Notes: a model not told the origin generated them from the sequence alone. Positions 11,345 to 63,374 are shown, numbered from the stretch's first letter. The stretch: 64,000 bases of DNA from a virus (IMGVR_UViG_3300035180_001680); one strand, 5' to 3'. Numbers and translations are program-made.

Positions 11345-11809
11345 ATGCAACGACCATTAGAATTATTACACGAAAACGTTACAAACATTGTCCGCATACT
11401 CGATGTGTATGAACAATACCTAGACAATTACAAAGACCACCTTCGACTTCAAGGTAAAAATTTAGTTGTAGCAAATAATGAACAACCTGGGTGGTTAGTT
11501 TATTATGATTCCAGACGTTCAGAATTAAAATCTGCTTTAGAATATATGGAAGTTCAAGTTCAGAAAGTTCGAGGGAAATTATGGAAAGATTACACAGAAA
11601 ATTACTCTAGAGAACTTCAAGCAAAAGACAAAGAACAATACATAAACCATGAACCAACATACCTTGATACGTATGAATTATATCTCGAACTAAAAGACTT
11701 ATACGAACAATACGTTTCTGTAGTCGATGCATTTAAGGCTCGGGGATATGCATTAAATAACATTACAAGAATAGTCAGTTCAGACATGGCTGATTATATG
11801 ATAGATTGA
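11345..11809 (+). CDS. uvsY: Recombination mediator UvsY-like
   Basis: Helical 154 aa, KDKEQYIN..DAFKARGYALNNI, directly before uvsW. Confidence 0.7.
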   Translation: MQRPLELLHENVTNIVRILDVYEQYLDNYKDHLRLQGKNLVVANNEQPGWLVYYDSRRSELKSALEYMEVQVQKVRGKLWKDYTENYSRELQAKDKEQYINHEPTYLDTYELYLELKDLYEQYVSVVDAFKARGYALNNITRIVSSDMADYMID

Positions 11810-13317
11810 TGGACATAAAACACTTTGTTGAGCAAACATACGCCAAGTCAGTCACGATAACACTAAAAAACGAAGTTCAGTGTATTGTGTCTGGTCTTCA
11901 TCCTGACGATTCAAAATATTTTGAGGATCAATTCGCCTATTTGTCTGAAGGGTATTTTTTTAAACCAAAATATAAGCTAGGTGTGTGGGATGGCAAAGTT
12001 CGTTTCTTTACATCAGCTGGTAACACCTATAATCATTTATTAGATCAAATAATTCCAACAATAAAATCATTTGGATATAAAATCAAATTAAATGATAAAC
12101 GTGTTGGTGTATTTGAGGAAGTCGATCCTATAGACAAAGACTATTTTCAACACATTACAAATCCAAAGACCAATGAACCATATCAGATTAGACCATATCA
12201 GATAGAAGCTGTTAATAAATTAACAGCTGATGGTGGAGGGATCGTTGTTGCAGCAACTTCGGCAGGAAAAACTACAATAAATGCAGCCCTTGTTGACTTG
12301 TACGGTAAAAAGGGTTTACGCTCAATTACGGTAGTTCCCAATATTTCTCTTGTATCTCAAACAACCAAAGCGTTCCGAGCTTTTGAGTTAGACGTGGGAG
12401 AATATAGTGGTGATTTAAAAGACACCAATCACCTCCACGTTGTGTCAACGTGGCAAGCGTTACAATATAATCCAAAAATGGTAAGTGAGTTTGATGTCCT
12501 TGTAATAGATGAATGTCAAGGTGCTAAAGCAAATGTTATTGGAACTTTAATTAAAGAATATGGCAAAAATATTGCTCATCGGTTCGGTTTAACAGGAACA
12601 TTTCCAAAAAATAAAGCTGATGCAATGACCATTAACACAAGTCTTGGATTTATAAAGTATACTATTCCAGCAGAAGTGTTAATAAAAGATGGATGGTTGG
12701 CGACCCCTAATATTACTATAATTCAGCTCGATGACCAAGATCGTTTTAATCAATTATTACGAGAAACAAGCAAACCTAACAATGATACGGAAAAATTTAC
12801 TTACGATAACGAAACTGCGTTTCTCCAACAAGATAAAGTTCGATTGCAGTGGATTGCAGATTTTGTTATCGAAAAAGGTTCTGCTTATAAAGGAAATGTC
12901 TTGTGTTTGGTTAATTCCATTAAGATAGGAAAAAAATTATCGAAGATTATTCCAAGTTCGAAGTTTTTGTATGGTAAAGATAAACAAAAAGTTAGACAAG
13001 CAGTTTATGATTTATTTGAGACGTTTAATGACCTTATAGTAATTGCTACAGTGCAAATTGCAGGGGTAGGGTTAAGTATTGATAGAATCTTTAATTTAAT
13101 ATTCATTGATGGTGGAAAATCTTTCGTTCGTGTTATCCAAGCAATAGGAAGGGGGCTTCGTATAGGAAAAGATAAGGACAGTGTTGACATAATTGATATA
13201 TGTGGAAACCTCGAATATTCTCGACGGCATTTATCAGCTCGAATAAAATATTACAAAGAAGCTAAATATAAACACAAAAAAATTGTTGTAAATTACAATG
13301 AACTTGTTGATGTTTGA
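11806..13317 (+). CDS. uvsW: SF2 DNA helicase UvsW-like
   Basis: IRPYQ, ATSAGKT, DECQ, GLTGT, QAIGRGLR. Confidence 0.9.
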   Translation: MMDIKHFVEQTYAKSVTITLKNEVQCIVSGLHPDDSKYFEDQFAYLSEGYFFKPKYKLGVWDGKVRFFTSAGNTYNHLLDQIIPTIKSFGYKIKLNDKRVGVFEEVDPIDKDYFQHITNPKTNEPYQIRPYQIEAVNKLTADGGGIVVAATSAGKTTINAALVDLYGKKGLRSITVVPNISLVSQTTKAFRAFELDVGEYSGDLKDTNHLHVVSTWQALQYNPKMVSEFDVLVIDECQGAKANVIGTLIKEYGKNIAHRFGLTGTFPKNKADAMTINTSLGFIKYTIPAEVLIKDGWLATPNITIIQLDDQDRFNQLLRETSKPNNDTEKFTYDNETAFLQQDKVRLQWIADFVIEKGSAYKGNVLCLVNSIKIGKKLSKIIPSSKFLYGKDKQKVRQAVYDLFETFNDLIVIATVQIAGVGLSIDRIFNLIFIDGGKSFVRVIQAIGRGLRIGKDKDSVDIIDICGNLEYSRRHLSARIKYYKEAKYKHKKIVVNYNELVDV

Positions 13318-38919: not shown

Positions 38920-41064
38920 TTAATCTCCGTTAATAAATTGTATGAAATCATTATCAAAATTCTCATTTATCATTTGTTCAAAATCTAAATATTTTAATAT
39001 TGGGTATTTAATGATAATATTATCCCATAATTTTTGGTAAAAGTCTACTTTGGATTTTCCCACTTTATAAATATTTTCCTTTGAATCAGTTTTTGCTTGA
39101 ACTGTATTTCCCAACCGGCTCCAATAAGATATTGTATCATAGTTATATTGATGTTCTTGTGATAAAGATGTAAAGAATTCTTTTACATTTTCATCCTTTA
39201 TATCCACTGAAAACTGTTTGAAAGATTTTTGTTTTTCGACAAGACCAAGTCTTAAAAAGAGTTTGAGTAGGGGAAGTGACTGTGCCCTGAGTTGATCATA
39301 CACCATCTTGGTGTATATCATTTTTTTAGCACTTGGATCTTCACAAGATCGTTGGGCTAATTCGACTAAATTGACCCAATGTTTTTCTTTCTTGAGTTGT
39401 TTCAAAACTCTTGGCCCTACACCATAGACTGTTATGTTTGGTTTAATGAGGTTAAGGCGTGACATTAATTGCACTAGGTCATCAATGTTAGCTGTTGAAC
39501 CAGAATCTTTGATTGCAACACCAAACCTATCTAGTTCAACATAATACCCACCATCCTTTATATCAACAGAAACAGAATTCCACATGTCCCGTTTGGTAAC
39601 CCGCATTCTGCCATTCCGTTGATAACAATTTATCGTTCCTGGCTGATTAACAACTCTAACCTTCGTCGTTTGTGTGACAACGGGGAGCGGCAACTCATCA
39701 ACGTTTTTTATTGGAGGGTTTCCTAGTAAATCAATTAATTCATCATATGCTCGTTTTGCCTCGTCTGAATTCGAATCCAGAGAAATTAGATACAGTTCTC
39801 CTGGTTGTTTCTTTGCGTGTTCTTTAATTCGAATTCCCGCACCCTTTGAACTATTATTAAGAAAAAAGTGAGAATTGGAATATTCTCCGCGTACTTCATT
39901 TGATAAATATTTTCCAGTTCGGTGTCCTCGTCGGTTTGCAAACACTTTTATTGTAATATGTGTCGTTATAGTTAAAGATTGTTTAAAATTAAACTGAACA
40001 TCTAATGCTTTACCATTTTTCCATTTTAAGTTGTGGGGGAGAATGCTTCCAAACGAACGGAAAAGTGCAGTGAACTGTTTGCAGGCTTCCCAAAAGGTGG
40101 GTAGAGCGTCTAAATCTTTAACCATTTTGTCGACAATTTCATTTTGAGTTGAAACGAGAGTCTTTTTTAATTGTTCGCACGTGTAAGCATCATAAGAAAG
40201 TGCTTCACGTGACAATGCAACGTCTAGATTTCCACGTTCATTGTTATCATCAAACATATCAAAATAAAAATCTATTGGAGAATTTATCAGTGAGCTAACA
40301 CAGTCTGGAATATCTTGTTTGTATACTGAATTAAAATTAACTGGGTAAAAAACCCCACCTTGAATTACTCGTGGACCTCCAAATCGTTTTGTTCTCAATC
40401 CCCAGTTTGTTCCTCTTATAAGATATTCATGACTGTCGAACGCAACTCGTTCAGGTGCAAGTCCCTTTATGTTTGGTAAAGGAGTAAAATATTGTAATAC
40501 AGAAAAAACCTTGAGTTGAAATACATTAAAATCGTATTGTTTAATTGGAACGATTACTTCCAAACCAGAAGGTTCGTCGTTCGGTTCTTCGTTTATTAGA
40601 GCAAGAACCGGGATTCCTTCTTCGCCAATATAAGCAGTGTATGTTCGTTTAAATTGTTCGATTCGGGACACGATTGTAAAATTATCTGTATACGCAAACG
40701 GACTCTTCGCACCAACCCCAAAAGCTCCAATTTCTCTGTTGGATGAATTTTTAGTACTCTCCGAATATGTAGTATAGATGTCAAACATTTCCGTGTGAGT
40801 TAAACCTTTTCCATAATCACGAACAGAGAAGTGAGGATACATTTCATTCGGAACATGAATGTCAAAAGGAATATTTTCTTTTCCTGCTACTGTATGAGCA
40901 TCTTTTGCGTTACTTGCAAGCTCTCGTATTACAGCTCCTGTTTTATCGGCATATATTTTATCTGATAAAAGGTTAAACATTTTAGCGTCAGCTTTAATAG
41001 TAAAAGCTTTTTCAGTAAAATTGCCGCCACGTTCAACAGTTTTCTGAATTACTTCCTGTTTCAT
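38920..41064 (-). CDS. rIIA: rIIA-like protein (N-terminal GHKL ATPase)
   Basis: LSDKIY..VIRELASNAKD, DYGKG, GAFGVGAKSPFAY. Confidence 0.88.
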   Translation of the reverse strand: MKQEVIQKTVERGGNFTEKAFTIKADAKMFNLLSDKIYADKTGAVIRELASNAKDAHTVAGKENIPFDIHVPNEMYPHFSVRDYGKGLTHTEMFDIYTTYSESTKNSSNREIGAFGVGAKSPFAYTDNFTIVSRIEQFKRTYTAYIGEEGIPVLALINEEPNDEPSGLEVIVPIKQYDFNVFQLKVFSVLQYFTPLPNIKGLAPERVAFDSHEYLIRGTNWGLRTKRFGGPRVIQGGVFYPVNFNSVYKQDIPDCVSSLINSPIDFYFDMFDDNNERGNLDVALSREALSYDAYTCEQLKKTLVSTQNEIVDKMVKDLDALPTFWEACKQFTALFRSFGSILPHNLKWKNGKALDVQFNFKQSLTITTHITIKVFANRRGHRTGKYLSNEVRGEYSNSHFFLNNSSKGAGIRIKEHAKKQPGELYLISLDSNSDEAKRAYDELIDLLGNPPIKNVDELPLPVVTQTTKVRVVNQPGTINCYQRNGRMRVTKRDMWNSVSVDIKDGGYYVELDRFGVAIKDSGSTANIDDLVQLMSRLNLIKPNITVYGVGPRVLKQLKKEKHWVNLVELAQRSCEDPSAKKMIYTKMVYDQLRAQSLPLLKLFLRLGLVEKQKSFKQFSVDIKDENVKEFFTSLSQEHQYNYDTISYWSRLGNTVQAKTDSKENIYKVGKSKVDFYQKLWDNIIIKYPILKYLDFEQMINENFDNDFIQFINGD

Positions 41065-47210: not shown

Positions 47211-47783
47211 ATGAAGAAAACAGTTTTGGACACGACTGTCCACAGTTTATCATTAGCATTAAAGGAACGGGACATCGTTACAGGACTTCATTCTGAACGA
47301 GTGTGTGAACTTGCGAGATTATTAGCACAAGAACTTAAGATTACAAACAAGGATTTTCATGTTCTTAAAATGGGGGCATGTTTTCATGACATTGGAAAAA
47401 TAGGGATACCTGATAGTATTTTATTAAAAACATCTTCATTAACTGAAAAAGAGTGGGAGAAGATGAAAACCCATACAGTTATTGGTCAACAGATTGTCAA
47501 TGCTTTGGGTGTTGAAGGGTGTATTGAAGCAGGAACAATTGTTCGGCATCATCACGAATGGTTTAACGGGGAAGGATACCCCGACCAACTCGTTGGTAAG
47601 GATATCCCGCTAAATTCCCGAATTGTTAGTATAGTTGACGCATATGATGCTTTAGTATCTCATAGAACGTACCATTGTTCATTGACACACGAAGAAGCAA
47701 TTGAAACCTTAAAAACAGAAACTGGAACTAAATTCGATCCTGAAATAATGAAGGTGTTTTTATCAATTACAAAACCGTCTTAA
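47211..47783 (+). CDS. Stand-alone HD-GYP cyclic-dinucleotide phosphodiesterase
   Basis: HSERV, HDIGK, HHEWFNGEGYP, RIVSIVDAYDAL. Confidence 0.92.
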   Translation: MKKTVLDTTVHSLSLALKERDIVTGLHSERVCELARLLAQELKITNKDFHVLKMGACFHDIGKIGIPDSILLKTSSLTEKEWEKMKTHTVIGQQIVNALGVEGCIEAGTIVRHHHEWFNGEGYPDQLVGKDIPLNSRIVSIVDAYDALVSHRTYHCSLTHEEAIETLKTETGTKFDPEIMKVFLSITKPS

Positions 47784-47960: not shown

Positions 47961-48599
47961 TTAATCAGGTTTCCAAATAGGGTCAATTAGAACTAACTGG
48001 GGACCAACAGAAGTTAACCTTGCCATAATGTTTCCTGAATGTAAGTCTAAATCTGCTATAGTACCATACGTGCGTAAGAAATTAACAACTTCTTCAAATT
48101 GAGCATTGCGCTCAATTTTTTTGTTAACAATAGCATCATGATAATAATTAATCAATTGACTCGTTGCAAGACTTTTGGCAAACTGTTCACTCATTCCGAG
48201 TGCCTGAAGTTGGTGAGAAATAGCATCTTTAATTTTAGGAGAATTTAATGGTAATAATTTTTCCATGTCAACAACTCCTGTATTATCATAAACAGAATCT
48301 ATTCTGTTGATGTATATATCAAACTCTTTCCGATACAGACGAATTTTATAAATTCGAGGTAAAAAGGGGTTATTTTGGTGTTTTTGAATAAACCGCAGGA
48401 ATTGAAGATACCCATCTTCTTCTGTGTTAAAACCAAAGACTTTTGTTACCACTCCAGGCTTCTTTATTCTATCAACTACAACAGCCTGAAGGCCAGCTCC
48501 AAGGCGTTTTAATGAATCTGTGTCTGTGTAACCATTTCTAACTTTAACACTATCAGATTTTCGAAGAGCTTCTCCTCCGATAATTTCAAATAACTTCAT
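47961..48599 (-). CDS. Protein-kinase-like fold protein
   Basis: LGAGLQAVV..VTKV, LPRIY, DMEKL, DLHSGNIM, LIDP. Confidence 0.75.
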   Translation of the reverse strand: MKLFEIIGGEALRKSDSVKVRNGYTDTDSLKRLGAGLQAVVVDRIKKPGVVTKVFGFNTEEDGYLQFLRFIQKHQNNPFLPRIYKIRLYRKEFDIYINRIDSVYDNTGVVDMEKLLPLNSPKIKDAISHQLQALGMSEQFAKSLATSQLINYYHDAIVNKKIERNAQFEEVVNFLRTYGTIADLDLHSGNIMARLTSVGPQLVLIDPIWKPD

Positions 48600-48720
48600 A
48601 CAATACTCCGATTTTGAGTATTTATCAACCTCTCAACTAAGAAAACCCCAGATGCTTCTTAAAATATTATAGTTAGAATCGTTTTGATAGTCAACTACCT
48701 CGTTTCCTTGTTATATATGT

Positions 48721-48804
48721 TGGTCCACCCGGAGGGATTCGAACCCTCATAGTCAAAGACGCGAGATTAAAAGTCTCGTACCGTACCAGTTCGGTGTCGG
48801 ATGG
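48721..48804 (-). tRNA. tRNA-Lys(TTT) with 13-nt variable arm
   Basis: CCATCCG/CGGGTGG acceptor, loop CTTTTAA, variable arm CGTCTTTGACTAT, encoded CCA. Confidence 0.85.
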
Positions 48805-48809
48805 AAATA

Positions 48810-48883
48810 TGGTACACCGCCACGGTATTGAGCCGTGTTCTACAGGGTAAGAGCCTATTGCATCACCTTAATGCTTGCGGTGC
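48810..48883 (-). tRNA. tRNA-Lys(CTT)
   Basis: Loop CTCTTAC, encoded CCA. Confidence 0.8.
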
Positions 48884-48892
48884 ATTATATTT

Positions 48893-48967
48893 TGGTAGGG
48901 CGCCTGGAATTCGAATCCAGCCTAAAAGATTAAAAGTCTTCTGTGCTTCCGCTGACACTAACACCCC
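48893..48967 (-). tRNA. tRNA-Lys(TTT)
   Basis: Loop CTTTTAA, short variable loop, encoded CCA. Confidence 0.88.
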
Positions 48968-48982
48968 ATTAAATTCCACTTG

Positions 48983-49067
48983 CTCCGGTCCGAGGAATCG
49001 AACCTCGCCTCCTTTCGGAGCCTTCGCATTAACAGTGCGAGACCTTCACCAAGCCAGTCCGACCGGA
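48983..49067 (-). tRNA. tRNA-Asn(GTT) with 16-nt variable arm
   Basis: Loop CTGTTAA, variable stem CTCC-GAAA-GGAG, G73, no encoded CCA. Confidence 0.85.
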
Positions 49068-49080
49068 GCAAGTGAAACTT

Positions 49081-49154
49081 TGGTAGTCCCTAGAAGAATT
49101 GAACTTCTGTATCTGCCATGTCACGACAGCACTCTACCATTGAGTTAAGGGACT
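49081..49154 (-). tRNA. tRNA-Val(GAC)
   Basis: CTGTC-GTGACAT-GGCAG, encoded CCA. Confidence 0.8.
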
Positions 49155-49174
49155 ATTAAATTTTTAAAGAACAT

Positions 49175-49208
49175 AAAAAAAGCCTCGGGAGATTTCTCTG
49201 CCGAGGCC
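49175..49208 (-). terminator. Attenuator terminator of tRNA array 1
   Basis: GCCTCGG..CCGAGGC followed by T7; 5' arm complementary to GCCGAGGC in the leader ORF. Confidence 0.85.
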
Positions 49209-49227
49209 TATTAACTTTTGTTTACTT

Positions 49228-49329
49228 TCAGATGATTAGTTTGATTTCAACAGTCAATGCCTCGGCGTGTGAACGTTTATTATTAACGTTTACATTATTG
49301 ATAAAAATTGGTTTAGTTGAATCGAACAT
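49228..49329 (-). CDS. Putative leader peptide 1, MFDSTKPIFINNVNVNNKRSHAEALTVEIKLII
   Basis: 33-codon ORF between promoter and terminator; Asn/Val/Lys run. Confidence 0.75.
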   Translation of the reverse strand: MFDSTKPIFINNVNVNNKRSHAEALTVEIKLII

Positions 49330-49365
49330 TTGTAAATTCTTTAAGTTTGTTAAGTTAGTGTTATA

Positions 49366-49394
49366 AGTATATATGACTTATTTATGAAAGTCAA
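49366..49394 (-). promoter_or_regulatory. Sigma70 promoter with embedded late-promoter motif
   Basis: TTGACT-ttcATAAATAagtcata-TATACT. Confidence 0.8.
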
Positions 49395-49592
49395 CAAAAG
49401 TTTACAGATAACTGTTGCAACTTCATAATCTTTAGATTTTTTTCAAATCTTCGTCATCTTTTTCATATCCTTTTTTGAAATCCCTCATACCTCTGTCAAA
49501 TTGTTTTTCAAGCGTACGAAGTCGGCGTGGTTCCTATGTTTTTTTGATAGTTCAGTAAATTCGTCTACTAAATCCGCTTGTGTATCTTCCAC

Positions 49593-49868
49593 TCATTCAG
49601 ACATTAAATGGGTTGCATCTTCACGCAACTGTTTTGTCTTACCTTTTGTGATTTCACTTTCATTCAACTTTTCCATACCACTCTTCGTAATCTTTCCAAC
49701 AATCTTTCCATCTTTCTTTACTTCGACAGGGTATCCCGTCTTTTCAGAATGTTTCTTCATTGTCGAAATCACTTCTGGTGTAAGATTAGCAGCACTCGTG
49801 ATAAATCCATTGGACTTTGAACAATAAAACTTATATAATTCAGTTTCAAATAATTGTTTTAATTTCAT
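49593..49868 (-). CDS. Hypothetical late protein (MKLKQLFE N-terminus)
   Basis: ATAAATA upstream. Confidence 0.6.
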   Translation of the reverse strand: MKLKQLFETELYKFYCSKSNGFITSAANLTPEVISTMKKHSEKTGYPVEVKKDGKIVGKITKSGMEKLNESEITKGKTKQLREDATHLMSE

Positions 49869-50018
49869 TATTTTTCTCGGTTATTCGAGTTATTTATTAT
49901 TAAGCGTGTTGGTTTCCAATAATCATAAAGTGATTGTATAAAACATGATTTTTACCACGTAAAAACCAAATCACGGTTGCCATTGCTCTCAAAGACGTTG
50001 TTTTAATTACCATTTGAC

Positions 50019-50237
50019 TTATCCTTGAAGGCTTTCATGGGCCTTTTCATTTAAAATATACCCATATTTATCGGAAAACTCATTCAATTCATCATCAGAC
50101 ATATTTGACCCATCTTCAAACGTACCTGAACAAAAATAAGCATCACAGAAATCAGGATAATCTAAAGAATCAACTCCATCAACCTCCAACGAATTAACAT
50201 TTACTTCTTTATCATTGATAATAAATTGTTCAGTCAT
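50019..50237 (-). CDS. Hypothetical protein
   Basis: DYPDFCDAY motif. Confidence 0.65.
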   Translation of the reverse strand: MTEQFIINDKEVNVNSLEVDGVDSLDYPDFCDAYFCSGTFEDGSNMSDDELNEFSDKYGYILNEKAHESLQG

Positions 50238-50521
50238 AGTTTTTCATTCCTTTCCAAGATTGGATTAATAGTTACACCAGAAGGGCAATCGTTATTTTCA
50301 AAAAGTTTAAAATTTGTGTATGGGTTACCACAAACAACACATTTTGTATATGGAGTTATTGAAGATCTTTGTCCATTATATAATGTTTGTTGGTCTTCAA
50401 TTGATAGTGTATCGAAATATTCATTAAAAGTGTTAACAATATTTTGAACATATGCCAATGATACACCAAAATGAACCTGTCCACATTTTTTACACGTCGT
50501 ATATCTGATATCGTTGTTCAT
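50234..50521 (-). CDS. Hypothetical Cys-motif protein
   Basis: CKKC..H, CVVC, CP. Confidence 0.65.
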   Translation of the reverse strand: MNNDIRYTTCKKCGQVHFGVSLAYVQNIVNTFNEYFDTLSIEDQQTLYNGQRSSITPYTKCVVCGNPYTNFKLFENNDCPSGVTINPILERNEKL

Positions 50522-50538
50522 TTTTCATCTCCATAAAT

Positions 50539-50614
50539 TGGTCCCGTCGGTCAGATTCGAACTGACAAAATAATAGTTTAGGAAACTATTGCCTTTCCCT
50601 TTGGCTTCGACGAG
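50539..50614 (-). tRNA. tRNA-Arg(CCT)
   Basis: ATAGT-TTCCTAA-ACTAT, encoded CCA. Confidence 0.8.
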
Positions 50615-50622
50615 AAAGAGTC

Positions 50623-50829
50623 TTACTTCTTAACCCTTTTTAAAGCATCTTTGCGCATTAACACTGTTCTATCATTTCCATATTTGTGAACTTGAAGAAA
50701 CTCAACTCCGTCGATTGAACGAATGTCATAGATGTCGTTGCATTCCCACCGCTCCTGATTTATCGGGTTTTCAAAAATCCCTGGAACTGGTACTGGTTTT
50801 ACTGCTTGTTTTACTTTTCGCTTATCCAT
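50623..50829 (-). CDS. Hypothetical protein
   Basis: AAGGA RBS. Confidence 0.55.
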   Translation of the reverse strand: MDKRKVKQAVKPVPVPGIFENPINQERWECNDIYDIRSIDGVEFLQVHKYGNDRTVLMRKDALKRVKK

Positions 50830-50984
50830 TTTTATTCCTTTTTGGTGTCAACTTCAAATTCTTTTTGAAGTTGTTCTAACAATAAACGCCTAGATTCTTT
50901 ATCTTTTCTAAGTTTTTGTAACTTTCGTTCTTTTGCCTTTTGAGCTCGAAGTTGTGCTTTTTTACCCGTTCTACTTCTGCCTCA

Positions 50985-51272
50985 TCACTCAATCTGAATT
51001 TCTTTGAAAATTTGTAATCGTTGTTTTGTGTCCGTTAACCATTCTTTTGATGTAGTATGAGCACCTTCATCGTAATCTTTATCGCCATTGTAAATGCACA
51101 CAACACAATTAGTTGTGACTAATAAAATTTCCCGATGTTCTTCATCGATCTTAATTTCATCAAACGATTCTCCATCAAAAAACACAAAGCAGTCTTCATT
51201 TTCAGAAATAATAGAAATAACCTTTTCAGTGAATTTGCGTGCATTTAACCAACGTTTATCAAAAATGTTCAT
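50985..51272 (-). CDS. Hypothetical protein
   Basis: ORF. Confidence 0.55.
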   Translation of the reverse strand: MNIFDKRWLNARKFTEKVISIISENEDCFVFFDGESFDEIKIDEEHREILLVTTNCVVCIYNGDKDYDEGAHTTSKEWLTDTKQRLQIFKEIQIE

Positions 51273-51371
51273 TCTGGGTCACCTGTTATAGTTAACATAT
51301 CGGTTGTACTTTTGAGCACCATTTAAATTTTCTTTAAGTGTATATTAATACTCTATACTTTCAAGGCGGTC

Positions 51372-51731
51372 TCAAGATGTAATACCTCGAGGCTTTGAAT
51401 TGATATATACAACTCGTTTGCTGCTATATCGTTTTTCAGCAATATCCTTGTCAGTAACGTATGCATCGTCTTCCCAATCAACATATCTTTTGTAAGAATT
51501 TTTCAGTTCTTTAACCTCTTCAGGTGTAAATTGAAAGTTCATGTTATTTTGGTGTCTACCTTCTTCAGATTGACACTGTTTCATGTAATTTTCGAATGTC
51601 ATTCTAACTAAACTTCCTTCAATGAATTTGGAATCGATGTGCATATAATCGCCGACCATGCTATTCCACAACACGACTTCAGGATTACCTTCAAGTTCTG
51701 TTAACATTTTAATCAAGTCATTCTTTCTCAT
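51372..51731 (-). CDS. Hypothetical protein
   Basis: ORF. Confidence 0.6.
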   Translation of the reverse strand: MRKNDLIKMLTELEGNPEVVLWNSMVGDYMHIDSKFIEGSLVRMTFENYMKQCQSEEGRHQNNMNFQFTPEEVKELKNSYKRYVDWEDDAYVTDKDIAEKRYSSKRVVYINSKPRGITS

Positions 51732-52078
51732 TTGATTTTTCCTGGCGTAATAATTATTGTTGCAATGCAGTGTTGGTTCCTTGGAAGGTCTTTTTCACAC
51801 TGAATCACATTCTTGTGAAGCTGCCGCGCCATGGTGTTCAGTGTTGTATTATACACATATAAGTTATATCCAAGCCATCCCAAAGAAAAACTTATCACAC
51901 CAGTCTAGGTATAAAATTCCATAATTACGTAATGGTCACCGACAGGCATCTTTGTCTTTGTACTAACTCACGTTTTAGTTCCTTAGTTCATGATTTATCC
52001 TAAAATTGCTATATCGACATCATACTTACACTAATGTTAAAAGACAACATAAATATTAAATAACGACTGGGACATGAA

Positions 52079-52510
52079 ATGAGATTGAATGAGATTTTTA
52101 ATTCGAGTGTAGAAATACATGTTGACGTTAAAACATATGAGGAATGTAAAATGTTTTTCGTGGTTGGGGAGATGGAATATGTTTTCCATGCTTATGAGAC
52201 ACAAACGAATGATGACAAAGGAAATCAGGTTTGGAACGTTGCATTCCGTGCTCAAAAAGGAAATCAAACGTCACACGGAATAACAGGTTCCGGAAATGCT
52301 TCTCAAGTTATGGCTGCTGTTATCCAGTGTATTAAAAAATGGATTGAATTATATCCAAAAGTTGTTACGTTCTTCTTTTCTGCAAAATTAGATGAACCAT
52401 CCAGAGTAAAATTATACAACCGAATGGCTCAATCTATTAAAGTTCCAGGGTGGAAAATGTATAAGGAAACGTTCAAAACCAAAGAACTATATTATTTTAC
52501 AAAAGGTTAA
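52079..52510 (+). CDS. Hypothetical late protein (MRLNEIF N-terminus)
   Basis: ATAAATA upstream; ITGSGNA..SRVKLY.RM. Confidence 0.65.
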   Translation: MRLNEIFNSSVEIHVDVKTYEECKMFFVVGEMEYVFHAYETQTNDDKGNQVWNVAFRAQKGNQTSHGITGSGNASQVMAAVIQCIKKWIELYPKVVTFFFSAKLDEPSRVKLYNRMAQSIKVPGWKMYKETFKTKELYYFTKG

Positions 52511-52797
52511 TTGTTAATTTTCCCTTGTTCAATATTATCTAAATGTTTTCTAATGTAACGCATAAACAATATTGCTTTGTCAGAATCGTTGAATACTCCA
52601 TCCCCTGTGTCTGATACTGGAACAGGAAATTCAAATCCATTACTTGTTTTATACCATAATTCATTTTGTCTATAAAACTGAAAATGTACAGTTTGGTCTT
52701 TCACTAACTCTTTAACGTTCATGATAAAATTCCTTTTTTGAGGTGGGATATAAAAAGTTGTGGACTTTTTTCTTCGTCTGTTGACTCGTGCTTTCAC
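52507..52797 (-). CDS. Hypothetical protein
   Basis: FEFPVPVSDTGDG..DKAILFMRYIRK; start may be 52722. Confidence 0.65.
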   Translation of the reverse strand: MKARVNRRRKKSTTFYIPPQKRNFIMNVKELVKDQTVHFQFYRQNELWYKTSNGFEFPVPVSDTGDGVFNDSDKAILFMRYIRKHLDNIEQGKINN

Positions 52798-52855
52798 GTT
52801 TACACTAAAATCCCATTGTTGTATTTGTACTACAGAAATACACAGAATTGTGTAT

Positions 52856-52927
52856 TGGTCCCCTTGGCCTGAATCGAACAGGCATAAGGTCGCTTAGAAG
52901 GCGTCCCACCACTCCATTGGCAAGGGG
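52856..52927 (-). tRNA. tRNA-Arg(TCT), atypical D-arm
   Basis: Loop CTTCTAA, T-arm AGGCC/GTTCGATT, encoded CCA. Confidence 0.65.
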
Positions 52928-53084
52928 GAATAAAAGTGCATTACTTTAAAGTGTTTTAATTAAACGAATATTTATAATTTGGCGGCGCAAAAGTTAATGA
53001 AAACGTGTTACTATATTTATGCACAAATATTTTTCACATCATTTCCAACTAGAGACAACCGGTATATCTATCTTGTGTGCCAGG

Positions 53085-53168
53085 CGGAAGACGGAGGAAT
53101 CGGACCCCACCCCTTGCGGAGCGTTTCGTTTAGCAAACGAACCTGAACACCAGAACAGTTCATCTTCC
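53085..53168 (-). tRNA. tRNA-Ser(GCT)
   Basis: Loop TTGCTAA, long variable arm, G73. Confidence 0.8.
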
Positions 53169-53173
53169 AATAA

Positions 53174-53443
53174 TTATTCTATTTCATCAACCAATTTGTT
53201 TAACTTAATTCTTTGTTTCTTTCGTTCTTTCCACTTCATGTATGCTTCAAAGCGTCTTTTGTTTCCATGCCGAGTCCCTGGTTTATTCAAAAAATCGTAT
53301 AATATGTTTAACAGTTCAGGGTTTTCCAATTCTTCTTTACCTATCCAAAACGGGTGTTCGGTAGAGCAATCTGTATCTTCCCGATATTGACGTATTGCTC
53401 TTTTGGATTTATTCTTCTCTTTGTGTCTTAATGTGTTAGACAT
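53174..53443 (-). CDS. Hypothetical basic protein
   Basis: ORF inside the tRNA array. Confidence 0.5.
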   Translation of the reverse strand: MSNTLRHKEKNKSKRAIRQYREDTDCSTEHPFWIGKEELENPELLNILYDFLNKPGTRHGNKRRFEAYMKWKERKKQRIKLNKLVDEIE

Positions 53444-53518
53444 AGTTAATAATCTTTAAAAGTTTGTTCTCTCATTGTATTGAATACAAAGACTAATATC
53501 AACATTTGTTTATGATGT

Positions 53519-53590
53519 TGGCCTCCCATGATCGAGTTGAACGATCCAGAATTGATTCGTAGTCAATAAGCTAGTTCCCCTAGATGAGAG
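53519..53590 (-). tRNA. tRNA-Arg(ACG)
   Basis: ATTGA-CTACGAA-TCAAT, encoded CCA; irregular D-arm. Confidence 0.7.
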
Positions 53591-53598
53591 ATAATTTT

Positions 53599-53678
53599 TG
53601 GCGGGTGTGAAGGGAATTGAACCCTCCTGATTTTCCGAAGTGACAGTCCGGTGACCACGCCATGCAGTCCCCACACCC
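53599..53678 (-). tRNA. tRNA-Asp(GTC)
   Basis: Loop CTGTCAC, G73, encoded CCA. Confidence 0.82.
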
Positions 53679-53773
53679 AAAAGTTAAAACAACACACTAC
53701 TACTGTCAGGTTGTTACACACCCTTTCGTCGTCTTCGGTATAGCAGACCGAATGCTATTTGACGGTGTTGATT

Positions 53774-53858
53774 TGGTACCACCGGTTGGAATCGAACCAA
53801 CTTTGAGGTTTCCCTCCAGGATTATCGGTCCTGTGCCTAACCTATCGGCCACAGTGGT
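53774..53858 (-). tRNA. tRNA-Ile(GAT) with 15-nt variable arm and C33
   Basis: CAGGA-CCGATAA-TCCTG, variable stem GAGG-GAAA-CCTC, A73, encoded CCA. Confidence 0.82.
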
Positions 53859-53864
53859 GTTGTT

Positions 53865-53940
53865 TGGTAGGACCAACCGGGTTCGAACCGATGACAGTCT
53901 GCTTGTAGGGCAGATACTCTACCAACTGAGCTATGGTCCC
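53865..53940 (-). tRNA. tRNA-Val(TAC)
   Basis: TCTGC-CCTACAA-GCAGA, encoded CCA. Confidence 0.9.
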
Positions 53941-53964
53941 ATTGAACGATTTCTCGTCCGTTTG

Positions 53965-54342
53965 TTACTTTCTGTGCCTTCGTTTATATAATCGCAATAC
54001 ATCACGCAATTCATTTTTGAAGGAACCATTTTCGCTGTAATATACACAACGACCCAAAGTACCTTTATTCATTCTATATTCCAACGCTTCTACTGACGTT
54101 TCTTCTGGTTGGAACTGTTCCTCCAAACCATAACACGAACAGTGTGATCCATTAACCTCATACAGTATACCGTTTTTCTCATACAACACAAACGCGGATC
54201 CACTATAATCTTCGTACGAATACCAAGCTAATAAGATCTTTTCACCATCATTCAGTTCTATCTGAAATTTGTGTTCAACGTCTTCTACATCACCAAAATT
54301 TCCTAAAAAGTATTGTTTCATCATCATCTCCTTTGTGGTCAA
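53965..54342 (-). CDS. Hypothetical protein
   Basis: YEDYSG.AFVL..YEVNGSHCSCYGLE. Confidence 0.7.
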   Translation of the reverse strand: MTTKEMMMKQYFLGNFGDVEDVEHKFQIELNDGEKILLAWYSYEDYSGSAFVLYEKNGILYEVNGSHCSCYGLEEQFQPEETSVEALEYRMNKGTLGRCVYYSENGSFKNELRDVLRLYKRRHRK

Positions 54343-54383
54343 AAAATCGTTTAACTCATATTAGAGTTCTGTTATTACAATAC

Positions 54384-54460
54384 TGGTACCCTTGGAGAGA
54401 TTCGAACTCCCGACCTTCTCGTTCGAAGCGAGACAATCTAGTCCACTGATATACAAGGGC
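54384..54460 (-). tRNA. tRNA-Arg(TCG)
   Basis: Loop CTTCGAA, encoded CCA. Confidence 0.88.
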
Positions 54461-54651
54461 ATATCAAATCATTATATCCTCAATTTCTTTCTTAAATCTT
54501 GAATCCTTCTATTATACTCAGAAACGTTAATTTCAGCAACGTTGGAAGACTTTTTTATTAGGGCCATTTTTAATTCTGTTTCTAATCTATTCAACTGCCC
54601 ACGCATTTTTGCTACTTTTTATCTTCTTTGCTCATTTTACTTCGTCCTTTT

Positions 54652-54728
54652 TGGCAACCCCGTCGAGAATCGGACTCGAAAAATCAACAAGGGTCAAAAC
54701 CTTGCGTCATCACTAGATGAACGGGGCA
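54652..54728 (-). tRNA. tRNA-Gln(TTG), divergent copy
   Basis: CAAGG-TTTTGAC-CCTTG, G73, encoded CCA; T-loop TCCGATT, ~8-nt variable loop. Confidence 0.7.
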
Positions 54729-54735
54729 TCTGTTT

Positions 54736-54810
54736 TGGCACCGCCGATGGGACTCGAACCCACCTGAATCTCATAGACAGTGAGATGCTCTCCCCGAGAG
54801 CTACGACGGT
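54736..54810 (-). tRNA. tRNA-Asp(GTC), second copy
   Basis: TCTCA-CTGTCTA-TGAGA, encoded CCA. Confidence 0.8.
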
Positions 54811-54823
54811 ATTATACTTCAAA

Positions 54824-54897
54824 TGGCAAGCCCACCAAGAGTTGAACTTGGACTAGAAGATTCAAAATCTTCTGTGCTACCGCTACACCACGGGCCA
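54824..54897 (-). tRNA. tRNA-Gln(TTG)
   Basis: Loop TTTTGAA, U1, G73, encoded CCA. Confidence 0.88.
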
Positions 54898-54905
54898 ATT
54901 AAAGG

Positions 54906-54978
54906 CTAGGAAGTAGAGAATCGAACTCTATACGAATGCGCTCAGAACGCACCACCTCGACCAATCGGCTTCTTCCCA
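54906..54978 (-). tRNA. tRNA-Gln(CTG)
   Basis: Loop TTCTGAG, G73, CCA not fully encoded. Confidence 0.8.
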
Positions 54979-55009
54979 ATATATTTTCAAATTTTTAATG
55001 AACAGTTGT

Positions 55010-55048
55010 AAAACGAAAAACCCAGTCTCTTTTGGAAACTGGGTTTTT
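55010..55048 (-). terminator. Attenuator terminator of tRNA array 2
   Basis: AAAAACCCAGT..ACTGGGTTTTTCGTTTT; 5' arm complementary to GGCTGGGT at the end of the leader ORF. Confidence 0.85.
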
Positions 55049-55071
55049 CTTTTTAAGAATTTAGCTTTATG

Positions 55072-55167
55072 CTATACCCAGCCTCCAGACATAATAATAT
55101 CACTGTCGCGACGTACTTGGCGTCGGCGAATGATACTAATACTCTGTTGTTGTCTGGTTACGAACAT
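55072..55167 (-). CDS. Putative leader peptide 2, MFVTRQQQSISIIRRRQVRRDSDIIMSGGWV
   Basis: 31-codon ORF with AAGGAG RBS between promoter and terminator; codons match the downstream tRNAs. Confidence 0.85.
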   Translation of the reverse strand: MFVTRQQQSISIIRRRQVRRDSDIIMSGGWV

Positions 55168-55325
55168 TTGTAAAGCTCCTTAAATTAAATGGTGTTTACT
55201 ACTTTATCGTCTGCTTAATATACGCTTCTACGCACCCACATATTTCTATGTTTTGTTAGTACCGGGACGTCCTAGCTTTCAACACCTAACTATTTAGTTA
55301 AGCACTTTGCTCAACTGTTGATACA

Positions 55326-55354
55326 AGTATATATGACTTATTTATAAAAGTCAA
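55326..55354 (-). promoter_or_regulatory. Sigma70 promoter with embedded TATAAATA
   Basis: TTGACT-ttTATAAATAagtcata-TATACT; near-identical to 49366..49394. Confidence 0.8.
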
Positions 55355-55459
55355 CATTTATTTATCAATCTCAAAAACACATCTGGTGCTTGGAACATCA
55401 TATACGTCGTTGACATCTTATGTCTCCTTAAAAGATATAGTATTTTTTAAACTAACGAT

Positions 55460-55762
55460 TTATCTTTTTCTTTTCTTTTTTCGTTCAATGCTTTCATTAG
55501 CACTTACATAATATTCAGGTGGTTTTTTTGTAATCCACTTAACAAACTTTTGGATGTTTTCATACTCCAATAAACGTTCAATCGTGTGATAATAATTAGC
55601 CAATTCACGTTCACTGAATGTGGCGTGGATATATCTATGGCAAACACGGTGGAGCATAACTCCATCTTTCCCTTTAAACGTCTTTGGAATTAAATGGTGG
55701 AAATCCACATTAATGTCACCCAGTGTTCTTCCACACAATGGACATAAATCATTTTCTGCCAT
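55460..55762 (-). CDS. Small HNH endonuclease
   Basis: CPLCGR..HHLIPK..LHRVCHRYIH. Confidence 0.82.
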   Translation of the reverse strand: MAENDLCPLCGRTLGDINVDFHHLIPKTFKGKDGVMLHRVCHRYIHATFSERELANYYHTIERLLEYENIQKFVKWITKKPPEYYVSANESIERKKKRKR

Positions 55763-60474: not shown

Positions 60475-61437
60475 TTAAACATATATTTGACTAACAGACT
60501 GCTTGGACCTCATTCTTCGTATAGTTTCTGCAACCAAATCACTAATTGATAATTGTCTGATGTTATTTGGAATATTGCCTATTAGTGGAATTGTATCTGT
60601 TACTACTAATTCGTCTAACACTGAATGAGTTAAATTCTCGTAAGCATTATCTGATAAGACAGGGTGAGTGGCATAAGCGACAACTTTAAGAGCACCATGG
60701 TCCTTTAAAGATTTCGCAGCCTTACATAAAGTTCCAGCTGTATCTACAATATCATCAACCATAATACAAACTTTTCCCTCTACGTCACCGATGATGTTCA
60801 TAACTTCTGATTCACCAGCTCGTGGGCGACGTTTATCAACGATAGCTAATTGAGTGTCACCGTTTAACTGTTCTGCAATTTGTCTAGAACGTAACACTCC
60901 ACCAATATCAGGAGAAACAACCATAAGTGTTTTTTCTTCTTTTTCTTTACGATACATCATTCTGATATCTTTAATGAATTCAACGGAAGCGGAAATGTTA
61001 GTAAAGGGAATCGTAAAAAACCCTTGTTGTTGAAGAGAATGAATATCAACCGATACTAAATGGTCAATACCAGCTGCTTGAATCACATCTGCTACAAGAC
61101 GGGAAGTAATTGGTCCACGGCTAAATCCTGGACGCCTATCTTGTCTGGAATATCCATAATAAGGAACAACCGCAATAATGCGTTTTGCAGCAGCTCTTCT
61201 TAATGCGTCTGTCATTGTCAACAATTCCATTAAATTGTCGTTAACAGGATTGCACGTTGACTGAATAACAAATACAACACTTCCTCTAACTGACTCTTCA
61301 ATTTCAACAGATGTTTCACCGTCTTTGAACTTACTTACTTTAGCCTTACCAAGTGCTAACCCCATCCTACTTGCTATCTTTGTGGCAAATTCAATATTTG
61401 AATTTCCAGCGAAAATCTTAACATTTGAAAGAGACAC
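60475..61437 (-). CDS. prs: Ribose-phosphate pyrophosphokinase
   Basis: F.DGE, PYYGYSRQDR, VSPDIGG, VDKRR, VDDIVDTAGT; GTG start inferred. Confidence 0.95.
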   Translation of the reverse strand: MSLSNVKIFAGNSNIEFATKIASRMGLALGKAKVSKFKDGETSVEIEESVRGSVVFVIQSTCNPVNDNLMELLTMTDALRRAAAKRIIAVVPYYGYSRQDRRPGFSRGPITSRLVADVIQAAGIDHLVSVDIHSLQQQGFFTIPFTNISASVEFIKDIRMMYRKEKEEKTLMVVSPDIGGVLRSRQIAEQLNGDTQLAIVDKRRPRAGESEVMNIIGDVEGKVCIMVDDIVDTAGTLCKAAKSLKDHGALKVVAYATHPVLSDNAYENLTHSVLDELVVTDTIPLIGNIPNNIRQLSISDLVAETIRRMRSKQSVSQIYV

Positions 61438-61551
61438 ATTTTCACCTATATTTGTGTGAGTTGTTTCGTAAAATATCAATACCAACATAAATCAATACTA
61501 CAGAAGGAAGCCTGATAGTTAGTATCAGGACACTCCATATAAGTCACTCAT

Positions 61552-63250: not shown

Positions 63251-63259
63251 AAAATCTAG

Positions 63260-63374
63260 TGTTGTTGGATGGACTCGAACCATCGGCGAACGTTTTATCT
63301 GCAGCGTTGCGGTCCTTTACCGGGGGCTACACCCTCGAGCAGACGTTATCTCTAACCAACTGATATACAACAAC
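63260..63374 (-). tRNA. tRNA-like gene with a 42-nt structured insertion in the anticodon loop
   Basis: GTTGTTG/CAACAAC acceptor, CAGTTGGTTAGAG D-arm, GATGG-TTCGAGT-CCATC T-arm, AACGT/ACGTT anticodon stem enclosing 49 nt. Confidence 0.75.

Follow-up and report, generated by a model that had tools for sequence, protein, structure and literature searches.

A transfer RNA (tRNA) operon for valine, asparagine and lysine, carried by a 64,000-nucleotide (nt) stretch of viral DNA (IMGVR_UViG_3300035180_001680; the whole stretch is called the window below), is probably gated by a ribosome-mediated, leader-peptide transcription attenuator that would open or close the operon according to the speed of decoding, as read from its sequence. 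The operon, referred to here as cassette D, lies on the minus strand of the window. A preliminary description made from the DNA alone had placed in it a promoter, an open reading frame (ORF) of 33 codons with the core NNVNVNNK, a strand complementary to the 5' arm of a terminator ending in seven T residues, and five tRNA genes, and each of these elements is found where it had been placed (Table 1). The caveats raised at that time also stand, namely that the codon GTA is not read by Val-GAC, that the leader has no AAG codon, and that the array has no Ile tRNA. tRNA genes are generally regarded as being under the control of growth rate and the stringent response, not of attenuation, and we know of essentially nothing on how tRNA genes of phages are regulated. 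In this article we describe the anatomy of the cassette and its paralogues, compare the leaders with the arrays they precede, examine the terminator and antiterminator pairing, and discuss the proposed mechanism together with its alternatives.

Four Paralogous tRNA Cassettes

The source record, that of an uncultivated giant phage in IMG/VR, is 178,796 base pairs (bp) long and comes from a sediment metagenome, with a CheckV completeness of about half. The promoter of cassette D is of the sigma-70 type with 10 of 12 consensus matches, and its 30-nt block occurs exactly four times in the record when up to one mismatch is allowed (window 49365-49394 and 55325-55354; genome positions G000:C1:37148 and 60898), and tRNA genes lie downstream in every case. 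One base differs among the four copies over the 30 nt. The start context TTTACAA(A)ATG comes next in each cassette and opens an ORF of 31–33 codons; an intrinsic terminator and a boxA-like motif separate this ORF from the tRNA array. Because promoter, start context and layout are common to all of them, the four cassettes (A to D) are paralogues. Jointly their arrays serve all 20 amino acids. The attenuator of cassette D had been described as independent of a sister element; this is true of its codon set, and is not true of its promoter, start context and layout, which are shared. The promoter spacer also contains an inverted repeat (GACTT-N8-AAGTC), a possible operator through which a dimeric regulator could act on all tRNA cassettes jointly.

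Leader Peptides Resemble the Arrays They Precede

All nine leader-array pairs that were tested, in this phage and its relatives, show enrichment of the leader in the amino acids of its own array. Against a background of 200,000 random windows of the same length drawn from the long ORFs of the phage itself, the empirical p-value for the own-array residue fraction is 0.015 in cassette A, 3.5e-5 in B, <5e-6 in C and 0.044 in D. When each of the four leaders is compared with each of the four arrays, the diagonal of the matrix dominates for A to C (0.53, 0.77, and 0.67); the value for cassette D, 0.34, is barely above its off-diagonals of 0.31, partly since its array serves just three amino acids, which is also why D is the weakest of the four over the whole ORF.

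The signal in cassette D is concentrated in a short part of the leader. Its longest run of K, N and V is eight residues, and a run of at least eight was found in 0 of 100,000 random 32-residue windows from the ORFs of the phage (p < 1e-5). This figure, together with the shuffling test of the pairing given below, indicates that the pattern goes beyond chance. Cognate residues occupy 9 of the 17 codons from 2 to 18 and 2 of the 15 later ones. When nine units are pooled, cognate residues account for 132 of 169 positions at which a stalled ribosome would leave the antiterminator free versus 37 of 101 elsewhere (Fisher p = 1.4e-11), a positional bias that is expected of an attenuator and not of a mere coincidence of composition.

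A Terminator and Its Mutually Exclusive Partner

Ten units were examined for the terminator and its competing structure, four in this phage and six in relatives. The terminator is present in all ten, with a folding free energy (dG) of -11 to -16 and a tract of T5–T7, and the best pairing partner of its 5' arm always lies within ORF codons 20–28 or over the stop codon (10/10). In cassette D the core of this partner, GCCGAGGC, covers codons 22 and 23 and the first two bases of codon 24, and as the preliminary description had proposed, it is complementary to the terminator arm, being the exact complement of GCCTCGGC (49207-49200). Compared with dinucleotide shuffles of the upstream RNA, the partner in D (dG -19.1 kcal/mol) was equalled in 0 of 500 cases; the same count was obtained for A and C, and the other units gave p = 0.004–0.05. 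When 49300-49182 is folded (codon 10 through the last base of the hairpin), the structure of minimum free energy is the antiterminator and not the terminator (15 bp, -28.8 kcal/mol, z = -3.9). Equilibrium folding with the U-tract included favours the terminator always and is hence uninformative.

The effect of a translating ribosome was modelled by masking a footprint of 27 nt (A-15 to A+11) codon by codon and folding the remaining RNA at equilibrium. For cassette D the modelled probability of the terminator is at most 0.08 with the A site at codons 2–18 and 0.99 at codons 19–29. Lysine 18 is thus the final A-site position that leaves the antiterminator free in the model, and the predicted boundary falls directly after the last sensing codon. 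In nine of the ten units the stop codon is 20–28 nt from the terminator stem, a spacing that would put a terminating ribosome just upstream of the hairpin and leave the hairpin uncovered. A small hairpin predicted over codons 12–21 leaves the antiterminator unsequestered, and may act in pausing or as an anti-antiterminator.

The boxA-like motif TGTTCTTTAAAAATTT stands between the terminator and the tRNAs. With up to two mismatches it has five matches in the genome, all of them immediately upstream of tRNAs and four directly after the attenuator terminators. This location suggests that polymerases which pass the attenuator may be turned Rho-resistant for the untranslated array.

Conservation and Co-Variation in Relatives

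Scans with the promoter pattern detected three relatives in IMG/VR (56, 135, and 257 kb), of which the 135- and 257-kb records are one phage, also represented by a 342-kb metagenome contig. A promoter scan of metagenomes returned only the phage of the G003 type and chance matches. Downstream of their promoter copies the relatives, too, have a short ORF, then a terminator and then tRNA genes in an array; most units also contain a boxA-like motif (CGCTCTTTAAAAA and AGTTCTTTAACAA), and the leader tracks the array. One leader, of 18–21 codons and rich in L, K, S, Y and G, stands before Gly, Gly, Tyr, Lys, Lys, Leu and Ser tRNAs and additional ones for Leu and Ser; another leader contains N and M, and its array has Asn and Met tRNAs, unlike cassette C. 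Array and leader content re-assort jointly between genomes, K and Y with Lys and Tyr tRNAs and N and M with Asn and Met tRNAs. The leader peptides themselves are conserved in composition only.

The pairing is also maintained by compensatory changes. Between A and A' the pair GAGCC:GGCTC is replaced by GAACC:GGTTC (G-C to A-T), and between C and C' the pair CTGGGT:ACCCAG is replaced by CCGGG:CCCGG (T-A to C-G). Two variants of cassette D itself were recognized on metagenome contigs. The first has a synonymous GCC-to-GCT change inside the antiterminator that retains a G.U pair; the second, divergent and co-occurring, has the leader fragment VVKNNVVSNVNNK ahead of a conserved RSHAEA segment, an in-frame insertion of 3 nt, and a TGA-to-TAA change of the stop codon, with the antiterminator pairing kept at -14.8 kcal/mol. 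Both variants indicate that frame, stop, pairing, and richness in V, N and K are kept despite sequence drift.

In cassettes of the relatives G001 and G003 (L017 and L021) the attenuator terminator is separated by a protein-coding ORF from the boxA-like motif and the tRNAs (about 800 nt in G001 and 575 nt in G003), and the attenuator of these cassettes would gate a mixed mRNA-tRNA operon.

A similar layout is found in the cultured Caulobacter phage phiCbK (JX100813). There, the 45-codon ORF gp083, rich in S, L, P and K, and an annotated rho-independent terminator precede Pro, Pro, Lys, Lys, Leu, Leu, Leu, Ser, and Ser tRNAs, and a second unit consists of a 32-codon ORF containing QFVRQIQVV and a terminator before Phe, Val, Ile, Ile, Val, Gln, and Gln tRNAs. 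These units have no detectable sequence relation to the cassettes described here. In the 20-kb tRNA region of phage XacN1, by the criteria used, no terminators were found before the arrays and the layout is absent, so the design is not common to the whole XacN1-type group; the XacN1 paper has no mention of promoters, leaders or terminators. Because phiCbK has the layout while the more closely related XacN1 is without it, the design is patchy across phages, and probably arose, or was lost, repeatedly. A search with the 212-amino-acid protein encoded next to cassette D returned distant loci only, none with such a cassette before tRNAs.

Proposed Mechanism of Attenuation

The sequences show the anatomy of the cassettes, its departure from randomness, and its conservation and co-variation; from these features we infer that the leader is translated, in which direction the switch operates, and to what signal it responds. 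The host sigma-70 RNA polymerase would initiate at the conserved promoter, and a ribosome would translate the 33-codon leader. With charged cognate tRNA in short supply, codons 11–18, which specify Asn, Val and Lys, would be decoded slowly and the ribosome would stall upstream of GCCGAGGC, which would then be free to pair with the emerging 5' arm and prevent formation of the terminator. The polymerase would read through, pass the boxA-like site and transcribe the Val-Asn-Lys-Lys-Lys array. When decoding is fast, the ribosome would cover the antiterminator or stand between the antiterminator and the terminator arm, the hairpin with its U7 tract would form, and transcription would halt 20 nt before the first tRNA. 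Since the regulated tRNAs read the test codons, each cassette would constitute a product-feedback loop for its own subset of tRNAs. The Asn/Val/Lys-responsive attenuation suggested in the preliminary description accordingly gains support from the sister cassettes, the relatives, the position of the cognate codons, the compensatory changes and the leader variant, and it is the signal that we would refine: limitation for an amino acid in itself is less plausible than the supply of charged cognate tRNA, given that tRNA is what the switch would produce and that the cassettes jointly serve all 20 amino acids.

Several observations weigh against attenuation by decoding speed. The Shine-Dalgarno sequence of cassette D is weak (AAAGAA) when compared with the GGAG or AGGA found at equal spacing in the sister cassettes, and no RNA run is among the sequencing runs that match the phage. 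The enrichment of cognate residues over the whole ORF of D is modest (0.34 versus 0.19, p = 0.044), and of its first 17 codons the array lacks a tRNA for eight (F, D, S, T, P, I, F, I). Synonymous codons match the array anticodons in 132 cases where 123.7 are expected from genome usage (z = 1.8), a result which makes the sensing of tRNA supply inseparable from the sensing of amino acids on codon grounds. Three units (B, the first G003 unit, and A') never favour the antiterminator in the equilibrium model. Finally, the ORF of D extends 9–10 codons past the antiterminator, that strand is left uncovered by a ribosome waiting at the stop, and the model predicts antitermination again from codon 32 to the stop. 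Termination after full translation would therefore need timing, or a ribosome acting as a steric barrier between the two strands, and termination after unhindered translation is the least secure step of the mechanism.

The alternative closest to this proposal keeps the same attenuator and changes its signal to amino-acid starvation of the host, perceived as uncharged tRNA in the manner of the trp, his, and ilv operons, so that transcription of the tRNA genes would rise under limitation for Asn, Val or Lys. Classical attenuators are known to be triggered by ribosomes that stall at hungry codons, and the match of leader and array, with the z-value just given, is one at the level of amino acids; extra tRNA, however, cannot relieve a shortage of amino acids, and the loop would have no corrective effect. 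A distribution of 20 amino acids over four cassettes also fits a sensor of decoding capacity better than a nutrient sensor, and some codon choices follow the anticodons, Lys being AAG in leader A, where the array has Lys-CTT only, and AAA in leader D, where it has two Lys-TTT, and Val being GTA in leader C, the array of which includes Val-TAC. We consider starvation of the host for amino acids an unlikely signal. Somewhat less likely still is a switch of opposite polarity or none, that is, a constitutive partial terminator, or read-through that needs successful translation, with a leader composition that just aids translation once the phage tRNAs exist. The folds of B, the first G003 unit and A', in which the terminator is favoured at any ribosome position, and the free antiterminator behind a ribosome at the stop codon of D are in its favour, but the stop codon lies 20–28 nt upstream of the stem, too far for a terminating ribosome to melt the terminator, and a constitutive terminator has no need for a conserved, co-varying antiterminator inside the ORF or for cognate codons placed upstream of it. 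Coincidence, that is, an unrelated small phage gene with its own terminator before a tRNA cluster, is very improbable: phage tRNA regions are full of small ORFs and the arrays of the jumbo phage XacN1 have no such layout, yet here there are four repeats with a common promoter and an array-specific composition, in a design kept in relatives and in a strain variant whose peptides are alike in composition alone.

Beyond this locus, and with less confidence than for cassette D, we lean towards a broader view of large phages. Each imported tRNA operon would be opened by a translated codon test only when the cell cannot decode the codons that the operon serves, here through four channels for 20 amino acids; the operons would also be turned on when host defences (anticodon nucleases) deplete particular tRNAs, and the arrangement would have originated repeatedly in unrelated lineages.

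Relation to Known Regulatory Systems

The ilvGMEDA leader (Ile/Leu/Val; ilvL has 32 codons) and the thr leader (Thr/Ile) are multivalent attenuators, and trpL, hisL, leuL, and pheL are further leaders of this class. Cassette D resembles the ilvGMEDA and thr leaders in its promoter-proximal short ORF, clustered codons for several amino acids, intrinsic terminator and predicted stall-dependent overlapping pairing. Its putative short ORF behind a promoter, cluster of cognate codons, intrinsic terminator and mutually exclusive antiterminator are those of a classical attenuator; the genes behind it are not for biosynthesis or aminoacyl-tRNA synthetases, as five tRNAs lie downstream. It differs from ilvGMEDA and thr in being a phage element that targets tRNAs instead of biosynthetic enzymes, in the division of 20 amino acids among four parallel cassettes with up to 8–9 amino acids per leader, and in the antiterminator, which is inside the ORF, 0–35 nt before the stop codon (in cassette D the stop is not adjacent). 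The phage cassettes are also without a clear 1:2 anti-antiterminator, and have a boxA-like site after the terminator. The Rfam model His_leader (RF00514) scores 29.8 bits on cassette D at 49173-49304, below its threshold of 49, and Thr_leader (RF00506) scores 27.1 bits on the sister cassette in the window, below its threshold of 55. The cassette is outside every curated family.

In Escherichia coli the pheM leader controls pheST, which encodes phenylalanyl-tRNA synthetase. Like pheM-pheST, the cassettes would be a case of leader-peptide attenuation of the translation apparatus, in which the output raises the decoding capacity for the sensed codons; pheST is a synthetase for one amino acid, whereas here the targets are the tRNA genes themselves. 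T-box riboswitches work without translation: their specifier codon and T-box sequence bind uncharged tRNA directly. They sense one tRNA, and control synthetase, amino-acid or transporter genes. The cassettes would share with them a choice of terminator or antiterminator that reports the state of a specific tRNA; the T-box model (RF00230) has no match at E <=1 within 48500-55500.

The boxA of E. coli rrn operons is TGCTCTTTAACAA, to which the motifs CGCTCTTTAAAAA and AGTTCTTTAACAA of the relatives are close, and the phage motif resembles the rrn boxA/Nus antitermination system in standing at the start of a long untranslated operon of stable RNA. It differs in that the phage motif sits downstream of a leader-peptide attenuator, and its role as a NusB/NusE site is putative. 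The tRNA blocks of phiCbK are similar in their promoter, short ORF, rho-independent terminator, tRNAs, and enrichment of the ORF in the amino acids of the block; their sequences are unrelated, the genome is GC-rich, the promoter is different and the ORF longer (45 codons for gp083), and they are annotated as a hypothetical protein and predicted terminators, so that the comparison covers layout and composition. As phiCbK is cultured and has the layout, the hypothesis is open to bench testing there.

A full-text literature search, in which few subscription journals were covered, gave no account of tRNA genes, whether phage or cellular, under the control of a leader peptide, and an older report may exist. 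Attenuator-like sequences may also lie upstream of pheU and pheV in E. coli, a point to which no weight is given here. If the proposal is true, a switch whose output tRNA reads the codons of its own leader would be a direct feedback on decoding capacity, and it would explain the grouping of phage tRNAs into particular arrays. It would also connect, in a way that can be tested, with the arms race around defence systems that cleave tRNA, and the leaders would be compact, programmable sensors of codon-specific translation speed.

Features of the Locus and Additional Observations

Table 1. Elements of cassette D and its sister cassettes (window coordinates; tRNAs predicted with ARAGORN)
Feature	Position	Strand	Details
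Promoter block, 30 nt	49365..49394	-	-35 TTGACT 49394-49389; 17-nt spacer; -10 TATACT 49371-49366
Shine-Dalgarno-like sequence (weak) and conserved spacer	49330..49343	-	AAAGAA; TTTACAA before ATG
Leader ORF	49228..49329	-	ATG at 49329; 33 sense codons (MFDSTKPIFINNVNVNNKRSHAEALTVEIKLII); TGA 49230-49228
Putative sensing run, codons 11–18	49276..49299	-	NNVNVNNK: AAT AAT GTA AAC GTT AAT AAT AAA
Predicted small hairpin	49268..49294	-	From AACGTT...AACGTT codons within the sensing run; in minimum-free-energy and centroid folds
Predicted antiterminator strand	49252..49266	-	Core GCCGAGGC 49266-49259, extended through CATTGAC; pairs with 49216-49200 (terminator 5' arm included)
Intrinsic terminator	49175..49207	-	GC-rich hairpin 49207-49182 (7 bp and inner 3 bp, dG -15.8 kcal/mol); T7 49181-49175
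boxA-like motif	49158..49173	-	TGTTCTTTAAAAATTT, 16 nt; between terminator and first tRNA
tRNA array, putatively regulated	48721..49154	-	Starts 20 nt after the T-run
tRNA-Val(GAC)	49154-49081	-	
tRNA-Asn(GTT)	49067-48982	-	
tRNA-Lys(TTT)	48967-48893	-	
tRNA-Lys(CTT)	48883-48810	-	
tRNA-Lys(TTT)	48804-48721	-	
Cassette A			Leader rich in G, L, Y, C, S, I, K; array Tyr (33-nt intron), Cys, Leu, Gly, Ser, Lys, Leu, Ser, Leu, Ile(TAT)
Cassette B			Leader rich in F, T, A, P, E, W, H, M; array Pro, Pro, Ala, Glu, Phe, Thr, His, then Thr, Trp, Met, Thr, Ala
Cassette C	54989..55354	-	Promoter block 55354-55325; leader ORF 55167-55072; terminator about 55043-55016; boxA-like 55004-54989; leader rich in R, Q, I, V, D, S; array Gln, Gln, Asp, Arg, Val, Ile, Asp, Arg, Ser(GCT), Arg
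Cassette D			Leader rich in N, V, K; array Val, Asn, Lys, Lys, Lys

DNA nearly identical to that of the phage is also found in microbial-mat metagenomes. Its UvsW-like helicase (Pfam match, window 11806-13317, plus strand) has about 43% identity to that of XacN1-type jumbo phages of Xanthomonas, Stenotrophomonas and Ralstonia, which are by this protein the nearest cultured relatives and distant ones, and a blastn search of the region against GenBank phages gave nothing beyond a tRNA-like match of 61 nt. An HD-domain phosphohydrolase (Pfam; 47211-47783, plus strand) is encoded on the opposite strand just past the tRNA array, a ribose-phosphate pyrophosphokinase (PRPP synthetase) is matched at 60475-61488 (minus strand), and a protein of 714 amino acids (38920-41064, minus strand) has a weak Pfam match to GHKL ATPases and is perhaps topoisomerase-like. 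The tRNA array of cassette D ends without a visible terminator. Directly after the last Lys tRNA there is a strong promoter-like site, TTGACT-17-TATAAT, with 11 of 12 matches (48666-48694, minus strand), which would drive the ORF of 212 amino acids at 48599-47961, a protein without a Pfam match.

A segment of the 5' untranslated region (UTR), CAACAGTTGAGCAAAGTRCT, with a small AGCA/TGCT hairpin is conserved in cassettes B and C and in the G003-type relatives (window 55200-55320, minus strand; G000:C1:60928-60975), and is absent from cassettes A and D. Cassette C has about 150 nt of extra UTR ahead of its leader.

The Rfam tRNA model matches the Val and the three Lys tRNAs of cassette D, and the Asn tRNA has a sub-threshold match to the tRNA-Sec model (33 bits, gathering score 47). 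At default settings ARAGORN missed a tRNA-Ser(GCT) whose variable arm is long (window 53083-53168, minus strand); a relaxed threshold and the tRNA-Sec model of Rfam (36.7 bits) both detect it, and it serves the three AGT codons in the leader of cassette C. When introns are allowed, ARAGORN reports interrupted genes for Tyr(GTA) (G000:C1:37395-37513, 33-nt insert), Leu(TAA) (G000:C1:9390-9709, 235-nt insert, perhaps a group I intron) and Ser(CGA) (66175-66290, equal to window 63259-63374, 31-nt insert). Unusual length is also seen in several other tRNAs, the Lys, Asn, Cys and Ile tRNAs concerned measuring 84–86 nt. Outside the window a lone tRNA carries the anticodon CTA of the amber suppressor type (G000:C1:46568-46641), and two tRNA-Sup are annotated in XacN1. 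The leader of cassette C ends in TAG, and one may speculate that suppression at a late stage of infection could let ribosomes enter its terminator.

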